Both the position numbers and the translations under genes were made by a program. Below are positions 5,551 through 32,038 of a DNA stretch of 33,651 nucleotides, one piece after another. The DNA is taken from contig JAZDJX010000035.1 of the NCBI GenBank assembly GCA_043803505.1, forward strand, positions 1-33,651. Direction: 5' to 3'. Numbering within the stretch: position 1 is the first letter of the stretch; every line of letters begins with the position of its first letter. Source of the stretch: Candidatus Aenigmatarchaeota archaeon (GTDB lineage Archaea > Aenigmatarchaeota > Aenigmatarchaeia > GW2011-AR5). The notes under the pieces are model-generated. The model was not told the origin of the DNA and did no database searches. It saw only the letters and a list, made by a program, of their open reading frames with translations.

Positions 5551-5620
5551 TTTTGAATTCTTGAATTTTTAAAATATATTATACTAGTAATAACTCACAG
5601 CTTATGATTTAAGCATCTTA

Positions 5621-8600
5621 TTATCCACTACCAAAATGTTTGTCAAGCAAATTTTTGTAACCCCCGACATCATTATTTTTGATATTTTCTACATAATCGT
5701 AAATATCATTTGTACATCCTAGTCCATTATATGCACGGAGCGCAGCATCCATTCCATCATAATGTTTTGGAGGCTTACCAGTGCAATCTTGGTATCCATC
5801 GCCAGGTACATTATAGTCTAATCCACCATTTGCATACTGTCCTTCAAGTTTCTTCAGCCACTGTACGCCAAGCCATATGTTACAATCTACGTCATAGGAT
5901 GTTTTTTTACCTGCTTCACAATTTGCAGAATATATCATCCCGCACTCTACATCCTGATTGCTTTTTGGTGTCTTATAATATTTGCTTTTGCATTCGCTCA
6001 AACTGCTATATGGGTTATACCATGCTGGATGTACTTTTTTATTCAGCTGCATGACGCCAAAGCTGCTTCCATCATAGCTCATAAGTATGTTTGTTTCCGG
6101 ACATGTTTTCCACAATTCTGCAACCTGTTTGCATGAGCCAGCTTTTCTTTGTCCGGCAACAGCACAACAGTGTCTGAATCCACTTTCCTGTTGTACGAGT
6201 TTCAGTATAGTTTCTGTGTCTTCTCTTGAAAACCCAGTAAGTTCTGCAGCAGCAATAACATTTTCTATAATATTATCTCCTGTTACAACCTCTTTCGATA
6301 CGCAAGCCCCTATCTTCTCAACATTGTTTTCAACCCTTTTGGCGTTCGGGTCCCACTGGCATGGCAGCCCGCATACTCTACTTGCATCCCCACATTGTTC
6401 ATCGCTCAGGAAATTCTCGCACTTGGCGTTTGCGCAGGATTTGCACTCTCCAGGAAGCATCGGATGTTCAATGAAATAGCATTTTGCACCTTTCATGCTT
6501 TCGCATTTGCTTCTGGTGCATGGCATTATCCCTTTTCCGCAGCTTTCACATGTTTTTTCATCAGCATCAGCATAAGGGCCGAGAGGCGGTGTGACAAGTA
6601 TCTGCTTGTCCTTCATCACATTGACTTCGAACTTTTCCATGCTCGCTGTTACAAGTCCTGTCTTGACATCCTGCACAGCAGCTGTATGAAATTTGCACGT
6701 GAAGAAAAATATTGACTGGAATTTGTACTGGAGTATTTCTATTGCCTTGTCTTCATCAGGCAAAACAGTGCAGGTTACATCTTCCTTTTTGTCATCCGTA
6801 AATTCACATGAAACCTTTCCTGTGCAGTCCACTTTTTTGTCATCATTCCCTTCAGTAAGAAATGTGCCGATAATGCTCGGGAAATGAAGTAATATCTGGT
6901 CGCCTTTATAGAGCCTTATCGTTGCATCAGGCCTTGTGTTAAGAACAGAAATAAGCAATATGGCATTCTTGTTGCCTTCCAGTGGCTGCGGCCCCACATT
7001 CATGGAAATCTGCGCAGGCGTTGACTTGCCTACAGCACCAACAGGGCGGTATACAGTCTTTCCTTCAGATTCTCTTCTCTTTATTTCATCCCTTGACATC
7101 ACTTCAACGAAAATCGAGCTGTCTGTTGAGTATAGATATGTCATGTTGACACTGACCTTTGCAAATCTGACTTCAGCCTGCCGCTCTTCCTGCAAAGACA
7201 GCGCAAGAAAGCCTTCATATGTGATTCTGTCGCTCGCCTCTGTTGGAATATTAAATTTTTCATTTTTATCTATCTTTACATTTTTTTCCTCGCAGAATGT
7301 GTTGCAGCTGGCGCTGACCCTTATGTCTTTTGCTTCATAATCCTTGCCCTCATTTTTTATTACAGTGATAACAGAAAATTCCTCCCAGCCTGGCACGCTC
7401 TCAGGAAGTGCATCTATGCTCATAAACTCAAGCGCCTTGGGGTAATCCAGTGGATTCTCTGGCCTTACATTTCTCATCTGCTGTCGAGCATAAAACTCAG
7501 TTGGGTTTGTCGCGAGGAGCCACACATCACCGACTGCGCCTTTCAGGGCATTGAAGGCAATGGAAACCGGAGCCTTTACTTGTTCCTTGATAATCTGGTA
7601 ATAGCCTGAATACGGGCCGAGCGCAACGTAGCCGAAAACAAGCACCACAACAGCAAGTGTCCTAACGCTTTTGTAGCCGCCGACCTGGTAAATCTGGAAA
7701 ACGCCTACGAACAGGAATAATATCAGGCCGCCCAGAACAAAGAACCATGTGTTGCCTATGTTTGCCTGGGTAAGCCCGAACGAATACATGAAAATTATCA
7801 CAGCATACGCTAGCATTGCGCCTGATGCAAGATGCGTTATAAAGTCAAATGGCTGTTGTACAGCCTCTATATTTATTATAAACAAGATGACAGCACCCAT
7901 TGCCGGCATTATAAGCAGCAGCAGCGGATAATATCCAATCCACGAAAGCACAAAATAAAACTGAATTATGACTATGGCAGTGCCTACTGTCCACGGCCCG
8001 ATGACTATGTTTATGATGTTATGCAGCAGGTTCTCATAGACATCACCCACTGTCATCATACCGCGGCTCATGGACTTAAGAAAGCGCAATCCCCTAAATG
8101 CAGTTGTTCTGCCCCTTGTAACAAAATCCTCGGCTATTTCACTGGCATAACCTTTCAGTTCGTTTTTAAGGGCTTCTTGATCATCTGAATTAAGTGGAAT
8201 TTTCCAGCGTCTTGCAACGCCTATTGTAACAGTTTCTGCCTTGTCTTCAAGATATTTTTTGAGTTGTGCAGATGCTGCATTCAGGTCATTGTTAAAATTT
8301 TTTTCAAAATCGTCCCGTGCCTTAATAAATTCACTTAATATAATACTTTCCTGTTTCATTGCATTCAGCATAGCCGGATCTATAGCATTGGCACCACCTG
8401 CCGCGCTTTCGTGCTTGCCAACCTGGTTTAGCATGTCCATTGAATTCATGCCACTTCCTTTCCATAACCCGTGTTGCTTCCGCATAAGCCTTTTCAATTC
8501 TTTTTCTGCGTCCTTTGCATTTTTTTTCAATCCCTCTAAACGCACAACCTCTGTACCTTTTTTGCCAATTTTTGAGTTGGCGTATTTCAGATTAAAGTCC

Positions 8601-10114
8601 CATTCAAACAGCCTTCTAAATTCTGCCTGTGCATAACCATCAAGAATGCGCTTGCCTTTGTTTATCGCAGAACGAAGATGGGGATTGTCAACATCAACCC
8701 AACCTTCTTTTGTCTTCATTTTTCCATGTTGGGCATGTTCTGTATCCCTTTCAATCTTCCCTTTCAGCAGGCTTGTGCGCAGCAATCCATGCGCAGTGTC
8801 GCCTGCTCCTTGCGCCCCGCCTTGATAAGGGCTTCCAATACGGGGGCGGTCAGTATGTACTACATCATCATATTTTTTATAAAAAGCTGTTATCTTCATA
8901 TCTTTATCTTCTATAGTAACAGTCCTTTTTCCCTTTTCTCCACCATCTTCCCATTTCTCAAAAACCCATAATATTTTTTTCCCATCTAAATGTGATTTTG
9001 GAACTTCAACTTCATATGTTGTATTTTCTATAGCTGGATGAATGTAACGAGTTCGTCCAACAATTTGTTTATCTATTGCTACCTTAACACCATCGATTGG
9101 TGTTGAATCAATAATAAGATTAAGTGTTTCAAAATATGCAGTAATTGTCATGAGTTCAACAACCTGCACATATCTTCTTGGGTCTGTAGAGCCATCATCC
9201 CATTTTGAAAATCTGTATTTAATATATGCACTGCCTTTTCGAAATGTTTTTTCAAGCTCAAGAACCTCGACTAAAAGTGTATCACCTTTCTTACACAGTT
9301 CACGTGTCGTAGTTACATAAGGTTCGCCTTTTTCATTCTTTTCTTTATCGTTTATTTTTATTTTAACACCGTGAAACGGTTGTGATACAACCTTAAGTGA
9401 CACCTCACTTTCATGGCCGGATGTTTTGTACACAGCTGTAATTGAATGATTCTGGTCCATAATTATCTCATAATATGTGCCGTCAGCTGCACCACTCCCA
9501 ACCGACATTCCTGATCCAACATTTTTGTTATCCAGTTCCCAGTGGTCAAATACAGATCCAGGATTTGGCATTTGCTTTATAGTTACACTTTTATTTGGTG
9601 GATATGAATGGCTGGTGTACGCAGATGGTGTTGTTATACCCGCTTTTTTTGGATGCACAGCCACAGCTAGAACATACCAGTCAGAACTTCCTTTATCCTC
9701 AGTTTTCCCAGGGGGCAAGGCATATTTCCACGGCTCACCAGCCGTCAAAAGCTTTCTTTCCGGTCCAGGCAGTAATTGTTTTCTTTCAGGTCCAGCCGTC
9801 AAAAGCTTTCTTTCCGGTCCAGGCAGTAATTGTTTTCGTTCAGGACCTGTTGTCAAAAGTTTTTGCGAACCTGAATCTCCAATAAAAATGAATTGTTTTC
9901 CACAATGGTCACATTGGTAGACATGTCTTCTTGGTGGATTGTAATTTGTTGGAGTCCGTATATTCATGTTGTATAAGATTCCAGGTCCGCCGCTGTCGCA
10001 GTCCGGGCAATCAATGCCTTCCAGTCTCGCCTCAAGGCCGGTTTTTCTTGTTACCCTTTCGACAGTATGTTCTTTATTTGTGATGTAGTCGCGGATTTTC
10101 AGTTTTTCAGCCAT
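5621..10114 (-). CDS. Giant (1,497 aa) five-TM surface protein: zinc ribbon + repeats / 5 TM / CARDB-like + Cys-rich + SLT-type lytic transglycosylase domain
   Basis: A 4,494-nt uninterrupted ORF in AT-rich DNA. Segments read from the translation: aa 36-71 CPDC...CDHC; aa 84-126 GPERK(Q/L)LL repeats; aa ~145-413 three beta-rich repeats ending F..W[ED][DN]G...ITA[VFY][YF]; aa 440-690 charged helical region; aa 700-835 five hydrophobic helices; aa ~905-1175 CARDB-like (VITVIKNEGKDYEAKDIRV); aa 1188-1252 Cys-rich; aa 1283-1485 the SLT motifs QQESGF, SSFGVMQL, NIWLGVQWL, ALRAYNGLG. Confidence 0.85.
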   Translation of the reverse strand: MAEKLKIRDYITNKEHTVERVTRKTGLEARLEGIDCPDCDSGGPGILYNMNIRTPTNYNPPRRHVYQCDHCGKQFIFIGDSGSQKLLTTGPERKQLLPGPERKLLTAGPERKQLLPGPERKLLTAGEPWKYALPPGKTEDKGSSDWYVLAVAVHPKKAGITTPSAYTSHSYPPNKSVTIKQMPNPGSVFDHWELDNKNVGSGMSVGSGAADGTYYEIIMDQNHSITAVYKTSGHESEVSLKVVSQPFHGVKIKINDKEKNEKGEPYVTTTRELCKKGDTLLVEVLELEKTFRKGSAYIKYRFSKWDDGSTDPRRYVQVVELMTITAYFETLNLIIDSTPIDGVKVAIDKQIVGRTRYIHPAIENTTYEVEVPKSHLDGKKILWVFEKWEDGGEKGKRTVTIEDKDMKITAFYKKYDDVVHTDRPRIGSPYQGGAQGAGDTAHGLLRTSLLKGKIERDTEHAQHGKMKTKEGWVDVDNPHLRSAINKGKRILDGYAQAEFRRLFEWDFNLKYANSKIGKKGTEVVRLEGLKKNAKDAEKELKRLMRKQHGLWKGSGMNSMDMLNQVGKHESAAGGANAIDPAMLNAMKQESIILSEFIKARDDFEKNFNNDLNAASAQLKKYLEDKAETVTIGVARRWKIPLNSDDQEALKNELKGYASEIAEDFVTRGRTTAFRGLRFLKSMSRGMMTVGDVYENLLHNIINIVIGPWTVGTAIVIIQFYFVLSWIGYYPLLLLIMPAMGAVILFIINIEAVQQPFDFITHLASGAMLAYAVIIFMYSFGLTQANIGNTWFFVLGGLILFLFVGVFQIYQVGGYKSVRTLAVVVLVFGYVALGPYSGYYQIIKEQVKAPVSIAFNALKGAVGDVWLLATNPTEFYARQQMRNVRPENPLDYPKALEFMSIDALPESVPGWEEFSVITVIKNEGKDYEAKDIRVSASCNTFCEEKNVKIDKNEKFNIPTEASDRITYEGFLALSLQEERQAEVRFAKVSVNMTYLYSTDSSIFVEVMSRDEIKRRESEGKTVYRPVGAVGKSTPAQISMNVGPQPLEGNKNAILLISVLNTRPDATIRLYKGDQILLHFPSIIGTFLTEGNDDKKVDCTGKVSCEFTDDKKEDVTCTVLPDEDKAIEILQYKFQSIFFFTCKFHTAAVQDVKTGLVTASMEKFEVNVMKDKQILVTPPLGPYADADEKTCESCGKGIMPCTRSKCESMKGAKCYFIEHPMLPGECKSCANAKCENFLSDEQCGDASRVCGLPCQWDPNAKRVENNVEKIGACVSKEVVTGDNIIENVIAAAELTGFSREDTETILKLVQQESGFRHCCAVAGQRKAGSCKQVAELWKTCPETNILMSYDGSSFGVMQLNKKVHPAWYNPYSSLSECKSKYYKTPKSNQDVECGMIYSANCEAGKKTSYDVDCNIWLGVQWLKKLEGQYANGGLDYNVPGDGYQDCTGKPPKHYDGMDAALRAYNGLGCTNDIYDYVENIKNNDVGGYKNLLDKHFGSG
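9741..9848 (-). repeat. Tandem 54-bp coding repeat (two units, each two 27-bp sub-repeats) encoding GPERK(Q/L)LL(P/TA)
   Basis: Units 9741-9794 and 9795-9848 are identical over their first 43 nt and differ at a few 3' positions. Confidence 0.9.
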
Positions 10115-10151: not shown

Positions 10152-10246
10152 TATAGTGAAACAAGAAAATAATACCTACATTACAACTTGTTTCACATAT
10201 AGTCACAAAAGGTGTAATATAATAATTATTTCTTTTGATGACTATA
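10152..10246. repeat. Paired long-hairpin intergenic element (type A/D)
   Basis: hp1 pairs GTGAAACAAG (10156-10165) with CTTGTTTCAC (10187-10196) around a 21-nt loop. hp2 pairs TATAG-TCACAAAAG (10198-10211) with CTTTTGaTGA-CTATA (10232-10246) and has one bulge. The architecture matches 31942-32038. Confidence 0.7.
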
Positions 10247-13864: not shown

Positions 13865-14236
13865 TCATCTCATACAATACATGCTGCAGCAGCTTCGTAT
13901 GCAATTTATATCACCGATTTTTGTAGGGTCAAGCGTTGTTTTGCCTTTGCACTGAGGATATCCGCCTCCCTTGTTTGCATCAGCAAGCCTCTTGCATGTA
14001 TCAGCCAGACCTTTAAGTGTTTCTTCTGCTTCGCCTTTCTTATCTGCTGTCAGACCATCGCAGCTGCCGTCAAATCTTGCATATGCAGAGCAGTAAACAG
14101 CCTGTCTCTCAGTAAGTTTTGTGAAATCTTCAGTCGGAATGGATATCATCCTGAAATATACCAGAAGCGAGCTCATGACAGTCACTGCGATTATGATAAA
14201 CACAATGGTTTCTATTGCAAGCGAAACTCCTTTCAT
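13865..14236 (-). CDS. Class-III signal peptide (type IV pilin-like) protein, Cys-rich
   Basis: MKG|VSLAIETIVFIIIAVTVMSSLLVYF. The extracellular part has 9 Cys. Its layout resembles the 12313 gene. Confidence 0.75.
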   Translation of the reverse strand: MKGVSLAIETIVFIIIAVTVMSSLLVYFRMISIPTEDFTKLTERQAVYCSAYARFDGSCDGLTADKKGEAEETLKGLADTCKRLADANKGGGYPQCKGKTTLDPTKIGDINCIRSCCSMYCMR

Positions 14237-14282: not shown

Positions 14283-14435
14283 CTACGGTGACATGCCCCT
14301 GAAAAAATTGCTTATGAACGACAGTCCCTTGTTAAGAAACTGGCCCTGGTTTGTCACAAATAATATCAAAACAACAAGAACCGACATGCCGAAAATTAGG
14401 CCTATCACAGCGATATGAGGAAGTTCATATTCCAT
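14283..14435 (-). CDS. Small hydrophobic protein (50 aa), not in the ORF track
   Basis: My reverse-strand translation: MEYELPHIAVIGLIFGMSVLVVLILFVTNQGQFLNKGLSFISNFFRGMSP*. One TM helix. It sits inside the pilin-like operon. Confidence 0.4.
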   Translation of the reverse strand: MEYELPHIAVIGLIFGMSVLVVLILFVTNQGQFLNKGLSFISNFFRGMSP

Positions 14436-14460
14436 GGATATAATTATTGTCAAGGACATA

Positions 14461-14610
14461 TATAGTTAACCAGCAAAAGAATTGGAATATGTTTGTTGGT
14501 TAACTTATACATGGTGAAGCAAAGCTTCACCTGTACAAGTGGAACTTTGTTCCACTATGTAGCAGTCAACTTTTATAATTTCTTCCGATTGTTAAGTTGA
14601 CTAGCTATAA
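14461..14610. repeat. Four-hairpin intergenic element (type B/C)
   Basis: hp0 pairs AGTTAACCA (14464-72) with TGGTTAACT (14497-505). After CAT, hp1 pairs GGTGAAGC with GCTTCACC around an aaa loop (14513-31). After TGTACA, hp2 pairs AGTGGAAC with GTTCCACT around a ttt loop (14538-56). After ATGTAGC, hp3 pairs AGTCAACTT (14564-72) with AAGTTGACT (14594-602), followed by AGCTATAA. Confidence 0.75.
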
Positions 14611-14648
14611 ATTTCTGGTTAAAGTGAAATTTCCGGAAAAAATAAAGA

Positions 14649-15215
14649 TTATTCTATAGGAACCTCTTTGCCGCATTTTCCATTCAGCCTTACACCGCCA
14701 ATCAATCTTTTTACACACTGCTTGACAAATGTGTTTTTATCTGCGTTAATGTCATGTGAAAGATCCACGCAAAGTTCGTTGCTCTTGAAGAATCCTATAA
14801 AAAATGATTCATTTGTGCCCCATCCTGTATTGGAATAGACAGTCACAGTCATGCTGAAAACATTTTTTCCATCCTTCTCAAGTTTAACGGTGTCGCTGCC
14901 TGCAATTTTTTCCTTGAAGAATACAACTGGTATGGCATCAACATTTTGAGTTCCATCATAGACTATTCCGAGGTTTGTGATTAAAATTTCAAACTTGAAA
15001 TTGCCTTCATAGTTTGCTATCTCATCGGCTGTCGCCTGTATGCATGTAAGATTTATTGTACCCTTATATTTTGGCGAAAGTGTGAAAAACATGTCTTCAT
15101 CGGGCTTTCCGAGCCATTTGTAAACAATGTCCTTGCCAGCTGCGAAAATCGTAATCACTAAAGCAAGCGTAATAATCATTGTAAGAAACTTGAACGTCGT
15201 GGTAATTTCAACCAT
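14649..15215 (-). CDS. N-terminally anchored pilin-like/surface protein (M-V-E-I N-terminus)
   Basis: MVEITTTFKFLTMIITLALVITIFAAGK is followed by a beta-rich 160-aa domain with 4 Cys. It belongs to the minus-strand operon. Confidence 0.7.
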   Translation of the reverse strand: MVEITTTFKFLTMIITLALVITIFAAGKDIVYKWLGKPDEDMFFTLSPKYKGTINLTCIQATADEIANYEGNFKFEILITNLGIVYDGTQNVDAIPVVFFKEKIAGSDTVKLEKDGKNVFSMTVTVYSNTGWGTNESFFIGFFKSNELCVDLSHDINADKNTFVKQCVKRLIGGVRLNGKCGKEVPIE

Positions 15216-15245
15216 AAGTACTATTTGTTCTTGGTATTAAAATAT

Positions 15246-16202
15246 CTAAACAGGGCAGTTATCGCATGTCACCTGTTCAGGTAGCACCCTGAAAGAATAT
15301 ATACCCAGCAACATGTCATAGCATCTCTTGTCAAAATCCACCATATCTCTTTCCCAGCAGTCATTGACACCTTCAGCGGGTTTTTTCCATAAGGATATTA
15401 ACATTTCATCACCAGCATCTTTCCATTCGCCGCCCATTTCAATGAGTTCAATGATGAATTTAGGTTCCCTTACCTCGCATCCTTTTTCAGGGTATGTAAA
15501 ACCTTCAAGCGTTATTTTAACCTCACCTTTACACAAATCAAAACTTTTTTCGCATTTTGACATGTCTTCTCCCTGTTTATCGCAATCAATACTTTTATCC
15601 TTCAGACGAAACCACGACTCAATGTATTTCACAGCTTTGTCATCTTTGCATTCAATAGTCATGACAGCAAGGCATTCTACAATGTCTTTTTCAATGAATT
15701 CCAGATTATTCAGTTGTTTTAGCCTCATGACAGCAAAGCTGTCAAGCACAATACCCTCACCCTCGCTCAGTTTTCCTTGGTATAATGCGCTTCTTTGTGT
15801 TCCTATCCGTCTGTTGGTTGTCAGCGGTGCCTCTTTGCTTCTTAGAGTAAATTTTCCAAGATAAAAGGCAGCATCATTTTTTTTGAGATTTATTATATCT
15901 GGATTATGCACTTTGGTGCCTTTGAACAGCATAGAAACAGTTGCTTCTGTGTCCTGTGAAGACTTGAAGCCTGCTGAAAGATTTATTTCATATGAATAAT
16001 CCGATACAAATCTGCTAGCTTTCATATTTGCTGATGGAGTGCCGACAAGCTTGACAATGCCTGAAAATTTCTCTACAACACCTATTGCTTTTGGGTCTTT
16101 GATTGGCTGATTAAAGCCCTCGGCAAACAGGACGGTTGCAATGACGAGAACAATAAGGACTGTTATGATACTTACCAGAACTTTTTGAATTATCTCAACC
16201 AT
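15246..16202 (-). CDS. N-terminally anchored pilin-like/surface protein (M-V-E-I N-terminus), Cys-rich
   Basis: The track starts at TTG 16217. ATG 16202 gives MVEIIQKVLVSIITVLIVLVIATVLF. The C-terminal part is Cys-rich (about 12 Cys). Confidence 0.7.
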   Translation of the reverse strand: MVEIIQKVLVSIITVLIVLVIATVLFAEGFNQPIKDPKAIGVVEKFSGIVKLVGTPSANMKASRFVSDYSYEINLSAGFKSSQDTEATVSMLFKGTKVHNPDIINLKKNDAAFYLGKFTLRSKEAPLTTNRRIGTQRSALYQGKLSEGEGIVLDSFAVMRLKQLNNLEFIEKDIVECLAVMTIECKDDKAVKYIESWFRLKDKSIDCDKQGEDMSKCEKSFDLCKGEVKITLEGFTYPEKGCEVREPKFIIELIEMGGEWKDAGDEMLISLWKKPAEGVNDCWERDMVDFDKRCYDMLLGIYSFRVLPEQVTCDNCPV

Positions 16203-16206
16203 TACA

Positions 16207-16374
16207 TCAGCCGCCAAATATTCTCGCTATAAGGTCCATCAGTCCGAAACCAGTGCGCGAGGCATGGCTTGACATGTCAGCATAGGCATTGCTCGCCACC
16301 ATAATCATGACAGCAGCGACTATGATAGCCAACAATATTTTATATACAGCAGCAATCATAATTCCCTTTTGCAT
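16207..16374 (-). CDS. Small pilin-like protein (55 aa), not in the ORF track
   Basis: My translation: MQKG|IMIAAVYKILLAIIVAAVMIMVASNAYADMSSHASRTGFGLMDLIARIFGG*. It has a class-III-like KG followed by a hydrophobic helix. Its stop lies 4 nt before the next ATG. Confidence 0.45.
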   Translation of the reverse strand: MQKGIMIAAVYKILLAIIVAAVMIMVASNAYADMSSHASRTGFGLMDLIARIFGG

Positions 16375-16375
16375 G

Positions 16376-16528
16376 TTATCTACCCCTTATAACAGCGGTT
16401 ACGTTTCCAAAGAATGCCTCTGTATTTTTTGATGTAAAAGCTACCATAAGTACAAGCGCAAATAAAAAAAACAGAATCCAGATTATCTGTGTCTGACTAA
16501 GACCAAGTACTTCAGCAGCTTCACTCAT
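16376..16528 (-). CDS. Small hydrophobic protein (50 aa), not in the ORF track
   Basis: My translation: MSEAAEVLGLSQTQIIWILFFLFALVLMVAFTSKNTEAFFGNVTAVIRGR*. First gene of the minus-strand operon. Its stop is 1 nt from the next ATG. Confidence 0.4.
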   Translation of the reverse strand: MSEAAEVLGLSQTQIIWILFFLFALVLMVAFTSKNTEAFFGNVTAVIRGR

Positions 16529-16645
16529 ATTACCTATATGATTTCGGTTTTATTAATGCTTTTTCTGTCGCTGTCATAAAAAAATAAGCCTAATCCAACT
16601 GAACATACTATAACTTTATTTATGCGGTTCGCTATATATTGATTC

Positions 16646-16777
16646 ATGAGAATGGAATATATTGTTATAAGTTTCATCCTGATGCTTGTTGTGCTTGTGG
16701 CACTCGTTTCATTTGGAAAAAACATTGTTCCAATGTTTTCTCAGGCAATGAAAGGTTTCATTGACATGATAGGCTAG
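16646..16777 (+). CDS. Small hydrophobic protein (43 aa), not in the ORF track
   Basis: My translation: MRMEYIVISFILMLVVLVALVSFGKNIVPMFSQAMKGFIDMIG*. First gene of the plus-strand operon. Its stop abuts the next gene. Confidence 0.4.
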   Translation: MRMEYIVISFILMLVVLVALVSFGKNIVPMFSQAMKGFIDMIG

Positions 16778-16786
16778 GTGAATACC

Positions 16787-18349
16787 ATGAAAGGCGGAGA
16801 ATATGCAATGGTAGAATTTTTTGTAGAGATGGTATTCATTGTTCTGCTCTTTCTTTTCGTTTACAATATTGTTTTAACGCTTGCAAATCCGGACATGCAG
16901 ATCGCCTTTCTGAATTCAGAACTTCTTGCATCAAAAATGGGCGAAGCATGTACAAACGACAAAGCAACACTTGACGGCTTCCAGCTTTCACAACCAAAAC
17001 CGTCAAACACGGTTACATCGGTGCTCAACATGGCTTCCAGCGGCGCAGCCACTGAGTTTTTTTCAAAGATAATGCTTGCAAGGTCATCAGATCCACACTT
17101 CCTGCTTTATTACGAGGCATTTCCATTTGGTGAATCTGTCGGATGGGATGTCTACCAGAACAATCGTAATATATTGTTCGCACCATTTGAGGTCGATGGG
17201 ACAGAAATAAAATCAAGCGTTTTTGAAGACAGGTTGTGGAGGAATTCTGATTATAATTTTCTGAACAGGACGTATACATCAGCCAAGGAAAAGATTTCTA
17301 ATGTAGGAGAAGAATTCAAAGAAGATAATGCTGAGTCAGTAGGTGCTGATATAATGGTTTATACTACAAATATAATGCTTGACGACAGACTCAACGCAAT
17401 ACCCACAGAGGAGCCCGAGCAGCTCTCCAAGACGTTCAAGAGGGAAGAAACAGGCAACCTTGGAAAATGGCAGAATGACGATTTCTATAAATTTTTCGGC
17501 TATGCAAGTCTCAAGACAGAAGAACAGATGGCTGTCAAGTACAGACCATGCGGTGTTAATTCTCTTTGTTTAAAAACAAGGGAAGGTGTCCATAGATTCA
17601 AGCTTGATGATGCATGTAAGAATATAAAATATGTGGAATTGGTTTATGATTCAACACACGCAACCATGAGCATAGTTAATGCATTGGAGGGTGGAGGGTC
17701 ATTAATAGCTGGAACGACCGTGACTATTGCGCTTCTTCTCAGATGGCAACCAAGAGCAGCTTCATTAATGGCCGCGCTCACGACATATGCTGGAGCAAAA
17801 TACGGCAAAGAAATGTTTTCAAACATACTAGGATACAAGAACTCTGATTTTTATTCAGCAAGCCCATGCAACATTAAGAGCAAGATAGAGATAAAGAAAA
17901 TAAGCTGTGCTGATATCAAGTGCAGCAAACTCATGAAATATCCTATATACAAGTACAGTAATGATGGGCAGAATGTAAATAAGGTTGGCGAACATTATAC
18001 ATGCATGCAGAACATAGGTGAAAATTTCGATTATGATAAATTAGACTCACAAAATATAGATGGCGACTGCATGCAGATAAAGGTCAGTGAGGTATACAAT
18101 GACTTCTGCTGGACGCCAGACCCATATTCACCAGCTTTATGGTCTAGCTTAAAAGATACTTTTAAAACACTAACAGGAAACATAGTTCATTCATTTCCAG
18201 TAAAAAAGAACACAGAATTCATGTTACTTGATGGTGTGAGCGCTGTTATGCTCAAGCCAGTTCCAGAAAGTTTTTCAAAAGCAGGTTTCTGGAAGACAAC
18301 TTTTGACCTTGACTGGCGCTGGCCCATGGGATATCTAGCACCAGGATGA
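16787..18349 (+). CDS. Large pilin-like/surface protein (class-III-like MKGG signal, then MVEFF helix)
   Basis: The track starts at GTG 16778. ATG 16787 gives MKGGEYAMVEFFVEMVFIVLLFLFVYNIVL. The ~490-aa extracellular part has a second hydrophobic stretch (GGGSLIAGTTVTIALLL) and many Cys. Confidence 0.75.
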   Translation: MKGGEYAMVEFFVEMVFIVLLFLFVYNIVLTLANPDMQIAFLNSELLASKMGEACTNDKATLDGFQLSQPKPSNTVTSVLNMASSGAATEFFSKIMLARSSDPHFLLYYEAFPFGESVGWDVYQNNRNILFAPFEVDGTEIKSSVFEDRLWRNSDYNFLNRTYTSAKEKISNVGEEFKEDNAESVGADIMVYTTNIMLDDRLNAIPTEEPEQLSKTFKREETGNLGKWQNDDFYKFFGYASLKTEEQMAVKYRPCGVNSLCLKTREGVHRFKLDDACKNIKYVELVYDSTHATMSIVNALEGGGSLIAGTTVTIALLLRWQPRAASLMAALTTYAGAKYGKEMFSNILGYKNSDFYSASPCNIKSKIEIKKISCADIKCSKLMKYPIYKYSNDGQNVNKVGEHYTCMQNIGENFDYDKLDSQNIDGDCMQIKVSEVYNDFCWTPDPYSPALWSSLKDTFKTLTGNIVHSFPVKKNTEFMLLDGVSAVMLKPVPESFSKAGFWKTTFDLDWRWPMGYLAPG

Positions 18350-18386
18350 AAATATTAACAAGAAATTCATACAAAAATTTTATTCT

Positions 18387-18529
18387 ATAGCCATCCAAAG
18401 AAATAAACATGATAAGATACCTTTGGTGACTACATGACGAAACTTTGTTTCGTCTGTACAGGTAAAGCCATGCTTTACCATGTATATGTGAACCAAATAA
18501 ATAATACCGACAAAACTTATTTGATTCAC
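18387..18529. repeat. Four-hairpin intergenic element (type B/C)
   Basis: hp0 pairs CCAAAG (18395-400) with CTTTGG (18421-26), with outer CA/TG and TAG/CTA pairs. After CAT, hp1 pairs GACGAAAC with GTTTCGTC around a ttt loop (18436-54). After TGTACA, hp2 pairs GGTAAAGC with GCTTTACC around a cat loop (18461-79). After ATGTATAT, hp3 pairs GTGAACCAAATAA (18488-500) with TTATTTGATTCAC (18517-29). Confidence 0.75.
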
Positions 18530-18588
18530 ATTATCTGTTTCACAAACTTTATTTATCAAGTTCTCCATATAGCATTACAGGTATACTA

Positions 18589-18996
18589 ATGAAAGGCATG
18601 ATGCTCAGCGCGCTGATTGTAATCGTGGTTGTAGGACTACTGCTGATTTATTTGGTATCGAGTATATTCGGCTCTGTTGCCTTGGTGACACAGACTTCTG
18701 CAAGGCTGAATGCCGAGAACGTCGCAGGCATAATAAACATGCTCATGACATCCTCAGAGCAAGCCACACAAAAATATATCATGCCAAAAATAGACTGCAC
18801 ACTCTCAATAAAAAACGGGTTTGTGGATTTTACTGTTAGAGGAAAACAGAATGAAATATGGATAATGCCGTATCTTAGGAGCAACATAGCTGTAGGAGAG
18901 CTGATAGAAAATTGCAATGCCCAGGCAGAAAAAGAACTGTATTTTACAAAATGTACAGATATGATTTTTATAGGATCCAGTCCTGTCGTATGTTGA
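18589..18996 (+). CDS. Class-III signal peptide (type IV pilin-like) protein
   Basis: MKG|MMLSALIVIVVVGLLLIYLVSSIFG, followed by a ~105-aa globular part with 4 Cys. Confidence 0.75.
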   Translation: MKGMMLSALIVIVVVGLLLIYLVSSIFGSVALVTQTSARLNAENVAGIINMLMTSSEQATQKYIMPKIDCTLSIKNGFVDFTVRGKQNEIWIMPYLRSNIAVGELIENCNAQAEKELYFTKCTDMIFIGSSPVVC

Positions 18997-19019: not shown

Positions 19020-19916
19020 ATGAAAAGACCGACATTCGTAGAAATTATGTCCTGGGTGCTGATTGTAATGGTAGTCATTATAGTCATGTTTTCTCTTATC
19101 GGCATCATGATAGACTTAAGGCCGACTGTTCAGTACAACATGGCTGAAAAATCTGTAGCCGAGATTTCTGAGAATTTGCTAAGCTCAGAATTAACAAATT
19201 CATATTCTGTTTTCAGCAGCGAAAAACTTTCAGCCCTGCATGGAAAAAATATAGAGACGGCAAGGGACTGCAGATATGGTTATGAAGTAACTTTTATTTG
19301 CCTTGACAAAAATAAGTGCAAAAGCCTTGATGTTGATGGAAATGACATTAACGGCAAATACAGTTTCGGATACAAAGAGGGATGGAGTTCCGGTATAATA
19401 GAGTCCATTGATCCTGTATCAAGAAGCGAGTACATTGTTGCCATCGAGGCACATGATGAAATTATACCGGCAAAAATGACCATTGAAATTTACGATACGC
19501 CACTGACAAGAACAGCCTGCATGATAGAAACAGCATATTCATTAAGGAAAACCCAGGAGGCAAGATGTGTCAGGTTTGACAAGGGCGGTGCATGCATAAT
19601 GCCTGCAGAAATAGGATTTGTACCAGGAATCGATATCAATTCATATGCAAAAGATGGCGATAAATTATGCGTTGTGAAGGATGTTAAAAAACGCAACTAC
19701 GAATTTGATGCATGCAGATACATGCCTGGTGTTGATTATTTAAATTTCATAATTGTGGAGCAGGTATCCAACATAAAAAAGATAAAGGCAGTTCCATTGA
19801 AAAACGTGCCTGATATTAACAGCAAGGTTACAAGTATACTGTGCAAAAATATTCCTGCCGATGTTTTGGCAGCTGAAACAGACTCGGATATTATTATTGC
19901 TTTGTGTGTGGAGTGA
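19020..19916 (+). CDS. N-terminally anchored pilin-like/surface protein (KRPTFVEIM N-terminus), Cys-rich
   Basis: MKRPTFVEIMSWVLIVMVVIIVMFSLIGIM. The extracellular part has about 10 Cys. It sits 23 nt after the previous gene. Confidence 0.7.
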   Translation: MKRPTFVEIMSWVLIVMVVIIVMFSLIGIMIDLRPTVQYNMAEKSVAEISENLLSSELTNSYSVFSSEKLSALHGKNIETARDCRYGYEVTFICLDKNKCKSLDVDGNDINGKYSFGYKEGWSSGIIESIDPVSRSEYIVAIEAHDEIIPAKMTIEIYDTPLTRTACMIETAYSLRKTQEARCVRFDKGGACIMPAEIGFVPGIDINSYAKDGDKLCVVKDVKKRNYEFDACRYMPGVDYLNFIIVEQVSNIKKIKAVPLKNVPDINSKVTSILCKNIPADVLAAETDSDIIIALCVE

Positions 19917-19920
19917 TTTC

Positions 19921-20754
19921 ATGGGAGTAATACTTCCGGTAATGTCGCTGACGCTTGTGCTGGTAATAGGCATATCAAGCCTGCTTGTCGGCATGATAGG
20001 CTACATTATATTTTCTCTGCCGTCAACAGGAGGCGGAAAAACAACATATAGTTTTGAATTTCTTGGCATGATTTCAAGGTCATTCTCAATTGCAAATATA
20101 ATTTCTGATGTGAATATTTATGATAGAACATTTCTTGAGCAGGCAATAGAATCAATGGCAACAGGCTCCACAGAAAATGGGAATGCAAATCCAATGTCAA
20201 TATCAGTTTTTATTGACAAATACGACATGCGTTTTTATAGCATTTCAATAGAAAAAGGTGGTAATGAAATATTTAACACAGACAATCTACCAAGAAAATG
20301 TGGAGGAAATGGCATATGTGTTCCTCAGTATGACGATGTAGAAAATTGCGGTGTCGGCAGGATAAAAATAGACGACAAAGAAACGTGCAAGAAATCAGAG
20401 CTTTGTTGCGAGGAAAATGAAAAAGCATATACGGAAACCAAAAATTCTTACACTATAGTCAAATGTGGCATAGGTGGAATCTGCACAACTGGTTATCATA
20501 TGGAAACGCTTACAGAAGCAGGCATAGAATATTCAGAAAGTTTTTGCGAGCCAGGCAGGATACCTATCGAAGAAAAAAGTAATGAATGTCATGTTGCCAA
20601 TAATGGTAATACACCTTTGTGCTGCAGGCCATTGACATTAATTACAAGTGCTTCAGAAACAGGAAATCTGGCACAGATTCCACTGCTTTTCAGGGGAATA
20701 AATGCACCCGAGCCATCATTTGGTTATGTGAATGTTATTACAGATGATAGATGA
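19921..20754 (+). CDS. N-terminally anchored surface protein with two Cys-knot-like repeats (KCG..GIC...GRI.I...C...LCC)
   Basis: The track frame starts at 19861 inside the previous gene. ATG 19921, 4 nt after the upstream stop, gives MGVILPVMSLTLVLVIGISSLLVGMIGYIIF. The two Cys modules are at aa 126-163 and 181-235. Confidence 0.7.
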   Translation: MGVILPVMSLTLVLVIGISSLLVGMIGYIIFSLPSTGGGKTTYSFEFLGMISRSFSIANIISDVNIYDRTFLEQAIESMATGSTENGNANPMSISVFIDKYDMRFYSISIEKGGNEIFNTDNLPRKCGGNGICVPQYDDVENCGVGRIKIDDKETCKKSELCCEENEKAYTETKNSYTIVKCGIGGICTTGYHMETLTEAGIEYSESFCEPGRIPIEEKSNECHVANNGNTPLCCRPLTLITSASETGNLAQIPLLFRGINAPEPSFGYVNVITDDR

Positions 20755-22595
20755 TTGTAATGAACAGCAATAAAGGTGATGCTAACATAATGCTCGCATT
20801 GGTCGGCATAATCTTCATAATTTTCATGCTTATCATTGTGCTGTCATCAGCATTTGGCGAGAACATAAAAAGGCACAAGATGATTTTTGACGAAGTCGGC
20901 ATAATGAAAGCAAAAAATACATTTGTTCTGTTAAACAGAAGCCTTACCGAGACATGGCGCATCTCATCAGCACAGGCAATTTACAATACAGGCGATGAAA
21001 GCATCGGCTGCGGGGCTGATGGTGATTTGGCTAAGGGCGATTTGGTTTATGGCTATTGGTATCAGTATAATCCTGCATCTGAAAAAACACCTTCATGCGC
21101 TGATAAAAATCCAGATGGAACAAACGATTGCAAGCTAAATGATGACGGAACAAACCGCTATCCTTATCCGAGATTGTCAGATGAAAAATACAATTATGCT
21201 GGTTATAATCCAAGAATATGTTTTCCACATGCCACACATCTTGTAAGTTATCTGGATGAAAAATTCAAGCCATACAAAAACATATCAAAAGAATTCGAGG
21301 CCAATAGTGCTAATGTAAAAATATCAAATATAAACAACAAATTCATCCTCACAGAAAACAATAAACTTGTAAATGATGTAACACAGGACATTTCCATAGA
21401 GCTTGGAAAGACAACAATAAAATCAAGCCCAGAATATAAAATAATTTTTGGTCCAGAGGTCTCAGACATTCTCTATGGTGGATGGATGGCAACACAACTT
21501 TTCCTGTCATTCTCAGATTCAATAACAGATGACAAAAATTTTTATAATGATGAAAGGACAAAAGATCCAGCCTATAATTATGGTTTGAGATATCAGAGTA
21601 TTTATGATGACAATCCCGATACAAAGGACTCATATGAAAAAAGAATTAAAGACGAAATCATCAACAAATCAATACTGCTGGAAAAAACACCACAAGCCAA
21701 GTTTAGTATTGATTTCAATGATTTTGAACTCATAGCGCACAATGAAAGCTATAAAATTTTAAGTTCCGTTACCCCGCCTTCAGGAACCACATATAAAACT
21801 GGTTTGATTCTTCATTATGATGCAACAGTCAGAATAACAGGAGAAAAAGGTATTGAAGCTGCAAATTGCATTGAGCCTAGCGATGACACAAAGAGCACCC
21901 TAGATGAAAAAGTAAATGGTGTTGACAATGCATGGCAGTTTGGAGATAAAAAATATACAAATGAAGAAATTGTCCAGCTTGTTGAGGCAATAATGCAGGT
22001 GAAGGATGGGCGATTTAATATGGATAGTAACAGGGAATCAAGCAACATAAAAGCAGCTATTGAATATATCCACGATTTATTTGATAAGTTGAAAAATGAT
22101 GCAAACAATGAAGAGAATATGATAAAGTTCGTTATCGCTGCATATGATTCTAACTGCGGTGAAGACTGCGTCAATAACGCTCGTGATATTGCAAGGGATG
22201 CCGGAAAAACAGACATATGGAATTACAATGAGATAAGCTCATTTTTGCCAGCAGAAACGCAGAATTATGTTGCAAAGGTACTCGGAAATTACATATGCTA
22301 CGGCGGCTTTGTAAGTTCCTCAGCAAATTATTATTTCAACGAGGAAAAGAATAAATTTTACAAAAAACCGTTTTCTCTTGTATTCAAAGTAGAGGACTAC
22401 CTGCCTGCCATTGATTGCAATATGCCGGCAACATATTTTTCATATATTACTGAAAATAGAAATGACCTGCTCTGCTGTGACGGCGTATTCTACTCTTGCA
22501 ATGTAGAAGGATTAGGAGGCAATAATATTCCTGTTGGCAATTCAGCTGATTGCATTGACGGTCAGTTTCAATGCAATGATAATGGCTTCGCCTAA
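20751..22595 (+). CDS. Large (614 aa) pilin-like protein with a degenerate SLT-like module
   Basis: ATGA overlap with the upstream stop. N-terminus is MIVMNSNKG|DANIMLALVGIIFIIFMLIIVL. At aa ~403-515: LVEAIMQVKDGRFN...NIKAAIEYIHDL...VIAAYDSNCG...LPAETQNYVAKVLGNY. The C-terminus is Cys-rich with LLCC. Confidence 0.8.
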   Translation: MIVMNSNKGDANIMLALVGIIFIIFMLIIVLSSAFGENIKRHKMIFDEVGIMKAKNTFVLLNRSLTETWRISSAQAIYNTGDESIGCGADGDLAKGDLVYGYWYQYNPASEKTPSCADKNPDGTNDCKLNDDGTNRYPYPRLSDEKYNYAGYNPRICFPHATHLVSYLDEKFKPYKNISKEFEANSANVKISNINNKFILTENNKLVNDVTQDISIELGKTTIKSSPEYKIIFGPEVSDILYGGWMATQLFLSFSDSITDDKNFYNDERTKDPAYNYGLRYQSIYDDNPDTKDSYEKRIKDEIINKSILLEKTPQAKFSIDFNDFELIAHNESYKILSSVTPPSGTTYKTGLILHYDATVRITGEKGIEAANCIEPSDDTKSTLDEKVNGVDNAWQFGDKKYTNEEIVQLVEAIMQVKDGRFNMDSNRESSNIKAAIEYIHDLFDKLKNDANNEENMIKFVIAAYDSNCGEDCVNNARDIARDAGKTDIWNYNEISSFLPAETQNYVAKVLGNYICYGGFVSSSANYYFNEEKNKFYKKPFSLVFKVEDYLPAIDCNMPATYFSYITENRNDLLCCDGVFYSCNVEGLGGNNIPVGNSADCIDGQFQCNDNGFA

Positions 22596-24497: not shown

Positions 24498-26141
24498 ATG
24501 TACACAAGGTTCATGTCAATACCTCCTGAAAATGCAGAGCTGCTTGACAGGTATAAGATTGCTGATGCGACAGTGGAAATATTCCAGATTCCAGGGAAAA
24601 CAAGAAAACTCTATCATATTGTGCCACAGGAATTTCGTCTGGGTGACGATGAATACGTACTTCTCGACACAGCAAGAAGGTACCTTGGAAAACATGAACC
24701 GAGGCAGGCAGAGCTTTTAGAACCAGAAAGGATGCGCGATAATCTTTACAGGATTGGACTGGACATGCTGCGCGACATAGCAAAATCAGATGAAATAGAC
24801 TTGTCTGAGCGCAGGCTTCAGGAACTAGGTAACATACTGACGCGTTATACAGCCGGCCTCGGCACACTTGAATTGCTGCTTCAGGATGATAATATACAGG
24901 ATATCACAATAAATTCTCCTGTAGGTTTTGCTCCAATATATATCTATCATGGCACGCACAGCGAATGCGAAACAAATCTTATACCGACAAAGGAGGATGC
25001 GGAAAGCTGGGCAACAAGATTCAGGCTGCTGAGCGGAAGACCACTAGACGAGGCAAACCCAGTGCTTGATACTGAGCTTAATGTTCCTGGTGGTCGAGCT
25101 AGAGTAGCAGCAATAACACGGACGCTCTCGCCGGACGGTCTTGGATTTGCACTGAGAAGACACAGAGATAAGCCATGGACATTTCCGCTGTTTATAAGAA
25201 CAGGTATGTTCGACAGTTTTTCTGCAGGCTTGCTTTGGTTTATACTGGACGGCGCAAGGACAATTCTTATTGCAGGAACAAGGAGTTCTGGTAAGACATC
25301 ATTTCTCGGCTCATTGATGGTACAGATAATGCCGCATATCAGGATTGTCACTGTTGAAGACACGCTTGAGCTACCTGTAGAGGCTCTGCGAAAGCTTGGA
25401 TATAATATTGAGCGTCTCAAGTCGCGCAGCGTGATAACAAGGGTTGAAACAGAACTTCCTGCTGAAGAAGCTCTTAGAACAGCACTCCGCCTTGGAGATT
25501 CTGCATTGATTGTGGGCGAAGTCAGAAGCAAAGAGGCTTTAGCTCTCTATGAGGCAATGAGAATCGGCGCGCTTGCAAATGTGGTTGCAGGAACAATACA
25601 CGGAGAGAGTGCATATGGTGTATTCGACAGGGTTGTGAATGATCTCGGCGTGCCTGCAACATCATTCAAAGCAACGGATATTGTGCTCATAGCAAACATG
25701 TTGCGCTCTCCTGATGGACTGCATTCATTCAGGCGTGTTGTCGAGCTAACAGAAGTGAGAAAACACTGGAAATCTGACCCCGCAGAGGAAGGAGGATTCG
25801 TTAATCTTCTTGAATACTCTGCAAAAGATGACATTCTCAAGCCATCAAAGACATTACTCACAGGCGAAAGTACAGTCCTTAATGACATCGCCTCGCGTGT
25901 GCGCGACTGGAAAGGCTCGTGGGATGCTGTATGGGATAACGTAAATCTTCGTGCAAAAATACTTCAGACAGTTACCGATTCCGGGAAGGCGAAGCCGGAT
26001 TTGCTTGAGGCTACAAGCGTCATTGCATCAAATTCAATGTTTCATCTCATAAGCGACGATGTGAAAAAAGAGGTCGGCAGTCTTGACAGCAAGATGATTT
26101 ATGAGCGATGGAATGATTGGTACAAGAAGGCTTTTCTTTGA
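24498..26141 (+). CDS. Type II/IV secretion-family ATPase (archaeal FlaI/PilB/TadA/VirB11-like)
   Basis: Walker A is LIAGTRSSGKTSFLGSL. Walker B/Asp box is SALIVGEVRSKEA. His box is VAGTIHGESAYG. The first ATG is at 24498, but the frame is open and coding-like from 24384 (KKILENCELIQIAKPNLSQHRNRELYRKIFHPSVRPNF-M). Confidence 0.9.
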   Translation: MYTRFMSIPPENAELLDRYKIADATVEIFQIPGKTRKLYHIVPQEFRLGDDEYVLLDTARRYLGKHEPRQAELLEPERMRDNLYRIGLDMLRDIAKSDEIDLSERRLQELGNILTRYTAGLGTLELLLQDDNIQDITINSPVGFAPIYIYHGTHSECETNLIPTKEDAESWATRFRLLSGRPLDEANPVLDTELNVPGGRARVAAITRTLSPDGLGFALRRHRDKPWTFPLFIRTGMFDSFSAGLLWFILDGARTILIAGTRSSGKTSFLGSLMVQIMPHIRIVTVEDTLELPVEALRKLGYNIERLKSRSVITRVETELPAEEALRTALRLGDSALIVGEVRSKEALALYEAMRIGALANVVAGTIHGESAYGVFDRVVNDLGVPATSFKATDIVLIANMLRSPDGLHSFRRVVELTEVRKHWKSDPAEEGGFVNLLEYSAKDDILKPSKTLLTGESTVLNDIASRVRDWKGSWDAVWDNVNLRAKILQTVTDSGKAKPDLLEATSVIASNSMFHLISDDVKKEVGSLDSKMIYERWNDWYKKAFL

Positions 26142-26268
26142 AAAAGAAAACCCTGGAAAAGAAAGTTTTAACGAAATGATGGGCTTTTCTTTAGTGAGAA
26201 CTTTGAAAAGAAAATAATAAATGGAAAGTGGGCTTTTCTTTGAGAAAAAAAACTCTTGAAAAGAAAAA
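26129..26268. terminator. Three tandem ~50-bp copies of a T/A-rich inverted repeat in a convergent gap (candidate bidirectional terminator)
   Basis: The units GGGCTTTTCTTT-N(10-16)-CT(T/G)GAAAAGAAA occur at 26129-26165, 26181-26214 and 26230-26268. The first overlaps the last ATPase codons. The third nearly reaches the stop codon of the prenyl synthase. Confidence 0.5.
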
Positions 26269-31941: not shown

Positions 31942-32038
31942 TTATTGTGAACCAAGGAAATAATCAAGATATTATAACCTGGTTCACATATAGCAAACAA
32001 GAAAAATAATATATGGGTTCTTTTCTTGTTTAGCTATA
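31942..32038. repeat. Paired long-hairpin intergenic element (type A/D)
   Basis: hp1 pairs GTGAACCAaGG (31947-57) with CCTGGTTCAC (31978-87). hp2 pairs TATAGC-AAACAAGAAAA (31989-32005) with TTTTCTTGTTT-a-GCTATA (32021-38). It lies in the divergent lysS / site-2 protease promoter gap. Confidence 0.7.

Follow-up and report, generated by a model that had tools for sequence, protein, structure and literature searches.

Four-hairpin elements in an Aenigmatarchaeota pilus-like gene cluster: probable members of a miniature, palindromic, Correia/REP-like repeat family

What are the four-hairpin elements that stand twice between genes in an archaeal pilus-like cluster? The stretch of DNA analysed here (the window) comprises 33,651 nucleotides from a Candidatus Aenigmatarchaeota archaeon, and the original prediction, made by reading it, was of an RNA processing, stability or attenuation element that sets pilin stoichiometry. 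The window encodes Alba, FEN1, class I LysRS, DUF63 and a T2SSE-type ATPase, the last inside the pilus-like cluster, and a 523-aa protein with its nearest homologues in Aenigmatarchaeota metagenome-assembled genomes (best 37% identical). No close relatives of the window with an exact empty site were found in the collections searched. Our analysis points to a different answer, namely that each four-hairpin element is probably a copy of a Correia/REP-like family of miniature, non-coding, palindromic and mobile repeats of Aenigmatarchaeota.

The window contains the core frame ACAT-N19-TGTACA-N19-ATGT at exactly two places (14509-14560 and 18432-18483), and none of 100 shuffles contains it. All four short stems of the two copies form perfect hairpins of 8 bp with 3-nt loops, long-loop hairpins stand on both flanks, and single-strand folding resolves each copy into four hairpins on either strand (z = -7.7 to -9.0). 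The predicted layout with its linkers, in two copies, is thus borne out, as is the remark that the stems differ in sequence between the copies while staying complementary. The limits of both copies were set by the bounding TATAG...CTATA (Table 1), the 3' end of copy 2 being degenerate (CACATTA). The claim that orientation cannot be assigned was wrong, since the alignment between the copies is much better when copy 1 is taken from the minus strand and copy 2 from the plus strand, and the flanking hairpins can be told apart, X starting with TATAGC and Z ending in CACTATA. A bulged T had been described in each short hairpin; one hairpin has it, and the other carries a bulged A on the given strand. 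The two copies are only 68% identical, no more than either is to copies in other genomes, and so are old or come from different sublineages. Paralogous duplication of the flanking genes was considered as their source and rejected, the flanking proteins being unrelated, and no long target duplications were found around the two copies.

As the original prediction had it, a pilin-like gene lies downstream of copy 1, but the gene upstream encodes 188 aa and is not large, and the pilin-like gene is not the next one, as an unannotated 50-aa ORF intervenes. The terminal CTATATAT of Z in copy 1 lies 25 nt upstream of the ATG of this ORF, which may, judging from the sequence, be a leaderless gene using the TATA at the terminus of copy 1. 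Called genes of 39-59 aa are also present in two related pilus loci (L002 and L003).

Some other features of the window are noted in their own right. Two parts of the pilus-like cluster that are unrelated to the repeat element are a 1497-aa protein (5621-10114, minus strand) with tandem LLT(A)GPERKQLLPGPERK repeats near its N-terminus and a 614-aa protein (20751-22595, plus strand) with a weak SLT-domain match, SLT being called in its counterparts in L001-L003. Along the window (1-33651) GC skew stays negative until about 16 kb and is positive beyond about 17 kb, the cumulative minimum lying near 17 kb; the turning point coincides with the divergence of two pilus-gene clusters (intergenic 16218-16777) and could reflect coding-strand bias or a replication origin or terminus. 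No orc1/cdc6 was seen among the window ORFs examined. Two isolated hairpins with a 12-bp stem and a 3-nt loop, both without the TACA/TGTA frame, lie at 16716-16742 (GAAAAAACATTG ttc CAATGTTTTCTC) and at 26128-26154 (AGGCTTTTCTTT gaa AAAGAAAACCCT), the latter at the 3' end of the T2SSE ATPase gene.

Table 1. Repeat elements, their parts and the adjoining short ORF (window coordinates unless a locus is named)
Feature	Coordinates	Strand	Details
Full X-Y-Z element, copy 1	14461..14609	-	149 nt; TATAG 14609-14605, CTATA 14465-14461; DNA fold z -8.5 / -9.0
Copy 1, long hairpin X	14562..14609	-	TATAGCTAGTCAACTT...AAGTTGACTGC
Copy 1, Y doublet	14508..14561	-	TACAT-AGTGGAAC aaa GTTCCACT-TGTACA-GGTGAAGC ttt GCTTCACC-ATGTA
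Copy 1, long hairpin Z	14461..14507	-	TAAGTTAACCAACAAA...TTTGCTGGTTAACTATA; A.C mismatch on gene-sense strand
Unannotated 50-aa ORF	14283..14435	-	Hydrophobic stretch (MEYELPHIAVIGLIFGMSVLVVLILFV... / MEYELPHIAVIGLIFGMSVLVVLILFVTNQGQF...); directly downstream of copy 1, before the pilin-like gene
Full X-Y-Z element, copy 2	18386..18533	+	148 nt; z -7.7 / -8.2
Copy 2, parts	X 18386-18430; Y core 18431-18484; Z 18485-18533		
X-Z element without Y	10152..10246	-	95 nt; junction GACTA/TA/TGTGAA; z -5.5
X-Z element without Y	31943..32038	-	96 nt; divergent region between LysRS and M50 peptidase genes; z -8.7
CACG/CGTG-type arrays, examples	L010 4966-5010; L032 732-780; L037 4996-5045; L003 14833-14880		

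From alignments of copies within and between genomes we derived a canonical form, which reads TATAG(C)-[X, about 47 nt]-CTA / TA / CAT-hpA-TG / TA / CA-hpB-ATG / TA / T-GTGAA..[Z]..TTCAC-TATA. X is approximately the reverse complement of Z over some 45 nt and mini-hairpin A resembles B, so that TGTACA forms the centre of an imperfect palindrome that takes in the whole element. In its basic form the element is about 96 bp long and consists of the two ~47-nt hairpins X and Z, bounded by TATAG...CTATA and meeting at a central TA joint; the Y doublet is a 52-nt optional insert at this TA and gives the ~148-bp form. Y itself is made of two 24-nt mini-hairpins, CA(T)-8 bp-3 nt-8 bp-(A)TG, each delimited by TA, an arrangement that yields the invariant linkers CAT / TG-TA-CA / ATG-TA. 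When the 52 nt CAT...ATGTA are taken out of copy 2, what remains is GACTATATGTGAA, the exact junction of the X-Z copy at 10152, and we therefore regard the doublet as an optional nested insert. This insertion or deletion is exact at TA, whether the X-Z form is compared with X-Y-Z or the doublet sits in the loop of another hairpin, Y-less copies reading ...GCTA-TA-TGTGAA..., and element lengths are tight (94-99 nt for X-Z, 145-155 nt for X-Y-Z).

Nesting is common. The loop of X may hold a second doublet or arrays of 4-6 mini-hairpins (CA..TG, TA-separated), one locus (L039) has an extra X nested within Z, and on contigs Ga0315289_10000005 and Ga0315289_10000006 the Y doublet lies in the loops of unrelated hairpins (CCACCGTC..GACGGTGG), empty forms of which occur elsewhere with TTTA/TAAA loops. 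A second type of doublet or array is built of mini-hairpins that share the 8-bp/3-nt geometry, have 5' arms rich in purines and are joined by the linkers CACG / GGTGCACC (GTGCAC) / CGTG; as these linkers lack TA, they do not fit a simple TA-duplication rule. One genome (L018) holds a whole set of TATAG/CTATA module types, with arrays of other ~47-nt hairpin modules bounded by TATAG/CTATA at 1924-2115 and 5560-5611 (for example TATAGCAGATTGTGG...ACAATCTGCTATA), one of which recurs inverted 3.7 kb away, around DUF1512 and TrmB genes. At another locus (L033, 369-3428, minus strand) a 1019-aa ORF crosses a truncated element (core 372-425; Z without CACTATA) and stops inside it, and the final codons of the gene seem to come from the element.

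The family extends far beyond the window. We searched with a pattern of 20 bases, made of the frame and the loop-closing C/G only, for which our own calculation gives about one chance match in 596 Gb. In reference genomes it found 49 further cores in 46 loci of 15 species-level genomes, the source records of which are all titled Aenigmatarchaeota or unclassified 'archaeon'; metagenomes gave 41 more cores and viral contigs none. All the cores (92/92) have 7-8 of 8 complementary positions in both stems, a pairing that the pattern does not demand. X-Z units without Y stand in about 20 places among the frame-pattern loci, and a scan for the X-Z junction added 50 further stretches, 48 of them in Aenigmatarchaeota or unclassified-archaeon records, including the original AR5 genome. 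The family totals more than 140 copies across more than 20 genomes and metagenomes. The element had not been recognised as a known RNA family, and this agrees with Rfam, which gave no match over the whole window at gathering score and, in a permissive search of 14300-18700, chance-level matches only (E = 0.65-9.2, including a weak SNORA20 (H/ACA)); no C/D boxes or bulge-helix-bulge motif were seen on reading the sequence. No description of such elements in Aenigmatarchaeota was found in the literature searched, which holds a large MITE census that included DPANN genomes (PMC11602168). The best reading is that the family is specific to the Aenigmatarchaeota lineage and new for archaea.

Several observations indicate that the element is dispersed by copying. 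Within genomes, copies are 88-100% identical and have unrelated flanks: two loci (L006 and L016) agree at all of 147 nt (100%) while their flanks are unrelated, and genome JACRMW holds copies with 88-97% identity to one another. Identical copies at unrelated sites, together with the nested insertions, indicate recent copying. In the window and in three syntenic relatives (L001-L003) the same pilus operon differs in which junctions hold an element: where the window has copy 2, the relatives have 127 nt without the element, 35 nt, or a pair of overlapping genes, and in L003 a related element separates the orthologues of two genes (19020-19916 and 19861-20754) that overlap one another in the window. 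Presence and absence were seen at the level of synteny, no nucleotide-exact empty orthologous site of a whole X-Z unit having been recovered. In L003 (11022-11280) an X-Z element also stands between direct repeats of 31-61 nt (ATGAGGTGTTTGCAAAATGAAGCATGAAAAA...), unlike the usual simple TA flank; what they duplicate is the downstream gene's ribosome-binding and start region, of which there is one copy on either side and a further one in tandem.

Which enzyme might move the element was approached from its neighbourhood. No autonomous element with matching TATAG ends was found in the ~1 Mb searched, where the genes between such ends were only those for DUF1512, TrmB, a Na/H exchanger, a rhomboid protein, a GHMP kinase and a NUDIX protein, and there is no recurrent transposase among 138 neighbouring ORFs. 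The sole transposase near a copy is an IS200-type Y1 gene, 110 nt from an orphan Y doublet. It raises the alternative that these are REP/REPIN-like elements moved as single-stranded DNA hairpins by a Y1 HUH enzyme of the IS200 or RAYT type, with insertion 3' of TA and no true duplication, which is a mechanistic variant of the mobile-repeat explanation and which we consider unlikely. Structure is indeed conserved while sequence is free, short tags (TACA/TGTA, TATAG) flank each hairpin, the inverted doublets and mosaic clusters recall those of BIMEs (PMC3733652), IS200-type Y1 genes do occur in these genomes, and insertion 3' of TA would explain the TA-[CAT..ATG-TA] layout just as well. The Y1 gene near the doublet, however, belongs to an ordinary IS200 with hairpins unrelated to X, Y or Z, and seven further Y1 relatives from Aenigmatarchaeota or unclassified archaea are also ordinary IS200, with hairpins of their own (CCACCAGTC..GACTGGTGG) and no X, Y or Z units beside them, so that a system of the REP-RAYT type is unsupported. 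No GTAG or CGTC tag accompanies the hairpins, and RAYT classes are unreported in Archaea (PMC6006769). Single-strand mechanisms usually leave an orientation bias relative to replication; relative to genes, the element shows none.

The insertion sequence itself (L036 5340-5975, the same as L090) encodes a 151-aa Y1 transposase with the HUH motif DHVHM and the tyrosine motif YVKDQ, and has subterminal hairpins CCACTGGTC-aca-GACCAGTGG; its relatives (L091-L096 and L105; 70-93% identity) lie in different contexts in several Aenigmatarchaeota MAGs. Hairpins like those of the IS200 (CCACCGNC..GNCGGTGG) also stand alone, and in the Ga0315289 contigs they host Y doublets.

The original prediction placed the function of the element in RNA, as a cis-acting processing, stability or attenuation signal, to which a small RNA gene may be added, with selection acting at the RNA level. 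For this the covariation would seem to speak strongly. Over a set of 51 cores from the window and the reference genomes (30 distinct sequences), pairing is found in 98.3% of stem cells (shuffles 80.1%, slid controls 33-46%), 12 of the 16 stem pairs show double-sided changes, and the covariation score of 0.518 (0.159 in shuffles) is reached by 0 of 500 shuffles, so that the check for compensatory change gave strong support to conserved pairing. Perfect covariation alone, however, is no proof of RNA structure. G.U pairs occupy only 4 of 480 cells (0.8%), fewer than the 8 outright non-pairs, and the stem mismatches are G.T on either strand about equally. Across whole elements the minimum free energy is better for the forward strand in 16 cases and for the reverse in 22, and in both window copies the antisense RNA folds better than the sense RNA, by 8.7 and 16.2 kcal/mol, because their Z stems carry A.C on the sense strand. 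Covariation that is Watson-Crick only, with no strand preference, is the signature of a DNA palindrome and not of an RNA helix selected on a single strand.

Genomic context points the same way. Both window copies do lie within co-directional gene clusters and X-Y-Z copies have a slight excess in the sense orientation, but the excess is weak and not significant: a bias of about 18:3 suggested by a heuristic fell, once elements were strictly defined, to 14:7 in the raw count and to about 12:7 without duplicates. X-Z units, the strand of which is fixed by the search pattern itself, are oriented as the genes in 9 cases and opposite in 10; their contexts are divergent in 11, convergent in 10 and tandem in 19, that is about 1:1:2, with roughly a quarter of copies between convergent genes and a quarter between divergent ones. 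The elements occupy intergenic sites beside varied housekeeping genes, among them those for aminoacyl-tRNA synthetases, SecY, proteasome, Nop and PPase, and ORFs with an N-terminal hydrophobic segment, taken as a proxy for pilins, are not enriched beside them (9/88 vs 48/308), so that an association with pilins was rejected and the proposed control of pilin stoichiometry is unsupported. The wider proposal of RNA processing or attenuation is not supported either, given the lack of orientation bias and of strand asymmetry, the near absence of G.U pairs and an operon junction that lacks the element in relatives, and a structured RNA of the kind catalogued in Rfam was rejected for want of a covariance-model match and of any strand-specific signature. 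Transcribed Correia and REP sequences are RNase III substrates and mRNA stabilisers (PMC2649163, PMC6006769), and stable folds are present here as well; selection at the RNA level is nonetheless very unlikely to be what maintains the element.

The termini of the element raise another alternative. The terminal inverted repeats TATAG...CTATA are invariant or nearly so, with T at -1 and A at +1, and the terminal TA could be a target duplication or part of the terminal repeat. Of the ends that face a gene start, 15/89 lie at 25-35 nt from the start codon, the position of a TATA box, compared with 3/81 of those that face a gene end (p = 0.006), and at many of them the ATG is preceded by no TATA-like sequence other than GCTATAAAA (...GCTATA+AAA). 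In the window, one end lies 25-37 nt upstream of a start codon in three of the four elements: besides copy 1, these are the X-Z copy at 10152-10246, whose Z end is 37 nt from the ATG (10114) of the downstream 1497-aa gene, and the one at 31943-32038, whose X end stands 32 nt before the ATG at 32071. In the native promoter of the pilin-like gene at 14236, the TATA box ends 30 nt from the ATG. One may thus ask whether the elements are host-domesticated DNA sites, either promoter modules that donate TATA boxes or sites for chromatin, topoisomerase or replication proteins, which the host selects and which are not mobile. The frame is conserved phylum-wide, persisting across genomes with 33-51% G+C and about 30-47% protein identity (pilus-locus orthologues compared), which is unusual for selfish MITEs and could mean a host-level function, and E. 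coli BIMEs bind IHF, gyrase and Pol I, as cited in PMC6006769. About half of the ends, however, look towards the 3' end of a gene, and convergent genes flank many copies; the hairpin sequences vary within one genome, so that no single sequence-specific protein can read them; and the identical copies at unrelated sites and the nested insertions point to recent copying. We judge host-selected, immobile sites very improbable.

We thus return to the miniature mobile repeat, for which the following course may be proposed. Modules would spread by insertion at TA, especially inside T-TA-TA promoter boxes, and a putative enzyme would recognise the structure of the hairpin or of the terminal repeats and not their sequence. 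The gene-proximal end would rebuild or supply a TATA box (CTATA+AA), which would make insertions near promoters tolerable or harmless. Perfect stems could result from the propagation of intact palindromes alone or from repair that uses the hairpin itself as template. Where RNA polymerase reads through a co-transcribed copy, the hairpins may alter mRNA stability, as an incidental side effect that would not be the element's reason to exist. A broader version, rather doubtful, holds that TA-delimited 47-nt and 24-nt hairpin modules form a phylum-wide 'grammar', an archaeal parallel to long-lived REPIN-like replicators, copied by a structure-reading enzyme and both targeting and rebuilding promoter TATA boxes; if it were true, elements would carry a sizeable part of the promoters of Aenigmatarchaeota.

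Experimental genetics hardly exists for DPANN archaea, whose genomes are tiny and gene-dense. In genomes of this kind a repeat that fills many intergenic regions matters for annotation, assembly and promoter prediction. It could also serve as a marker for strain typing, as REP and Correia do in bacteria, and it raises a question of enzymology, that of a protein copying 24-nt and 47-nt palindromes at archaeal TA sites. If the ends of the element act as TATA boxes, they would be an archaeal parallel to the promoter donation of Correia.

How does the family compare with known systems? Integron attC sites have RYYYAAC...GTTRRRY core sites in promoterless cassette arrays next to intI; here the ends are TATAG/CTATA and the neighbours housekeeping genes in all orientations, and this candidate was rejected. 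With MITEs the family shares its small size (<300 bp), non-coding nature, dispersal in multiple near-identical copies and terminal inverted repeats; an autonomous element with the same ends was not found within the ~1 Mb searched. Like the PATEs derived from IS200/IS605, it includes subterminal hairpins and occurs in archaea, with an IS200 near one orphan doublet; unlike them, the resident IS200 hairpins are unrelated to X, Y and Z, and there is no conserved target tetranucleotide on one flank. Elhai et al. reportedly described in 2008 very small nested dispersed repeats (SDRs) of cyanobacteria. SDRs and the double-hairpin elements of mitochondria are palindromes of about 20-30 nt, inserted within each other and within other repeats, just as the 24-nt CA..TG mini-hairpins nest and form arrays; hosts and sequences differ, and our mini-hairpins are TA-delimited and mostly inside a larger two-hairpin element.

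The likeness to REP, BIME and REPIN sequences is closer. The 20-40 bp imperfect palindromes in inverted doublets that define REP/REPIN are present, structure and not sequence is conserved between species, tags stand beside the stem, sites are intergenic and mosaic clusters occur as well (PMC3733652). In Anabaena, moreover, REP dimers are nested within longer TATAGG...CCTATA palindromes (PMC3733652). The tags, however, are TACA(T)/(A)TGTA and TATAG and not GTAG/CGTC, GTAG being sporadic only, as ATGTAG, and no single-copy Y1 (RAYT) gene flanked by units was found in the 7 further archaeal MAGs examined.

The element has its closest analogue in Correia/NEMIS, of which it is not a member. The Correia/NEMIS elements of Neisseria have TATAG[C/T] termini with TA at the ends and classes of 153-157 and 104-108 bp; the ends are able to provide a neighbouring gene with promoter elements, and RNAs transcribed from them form long hairpins (PMC2649163, PMC2229807). 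The archaeal family likewise has TATAG[CT] ends and TA flanks, is intergenic and multicopy, and falls into two size classes, the larger having an additional internal segment of about 50 bp. The 26-bp terminal repeat of Correia, TATAG[CT]GGATTAACAAAAA..., is found in Neisseria only (PMC2649163), and sequence likeness to it ends after the first 5-7 bases, only TATAG[CT] being common. In an archaeal host the promoter element in question would be a TATA box, in place of a sigma-70 -10 box. Each half of our element is itself a hairpin and its internal segment is a pair of mini-hairpins, not an IHF site; and whereas Correia is confined to one genus with a conserved sequence, the archaeal family is phylum-wide, with stems that covary.
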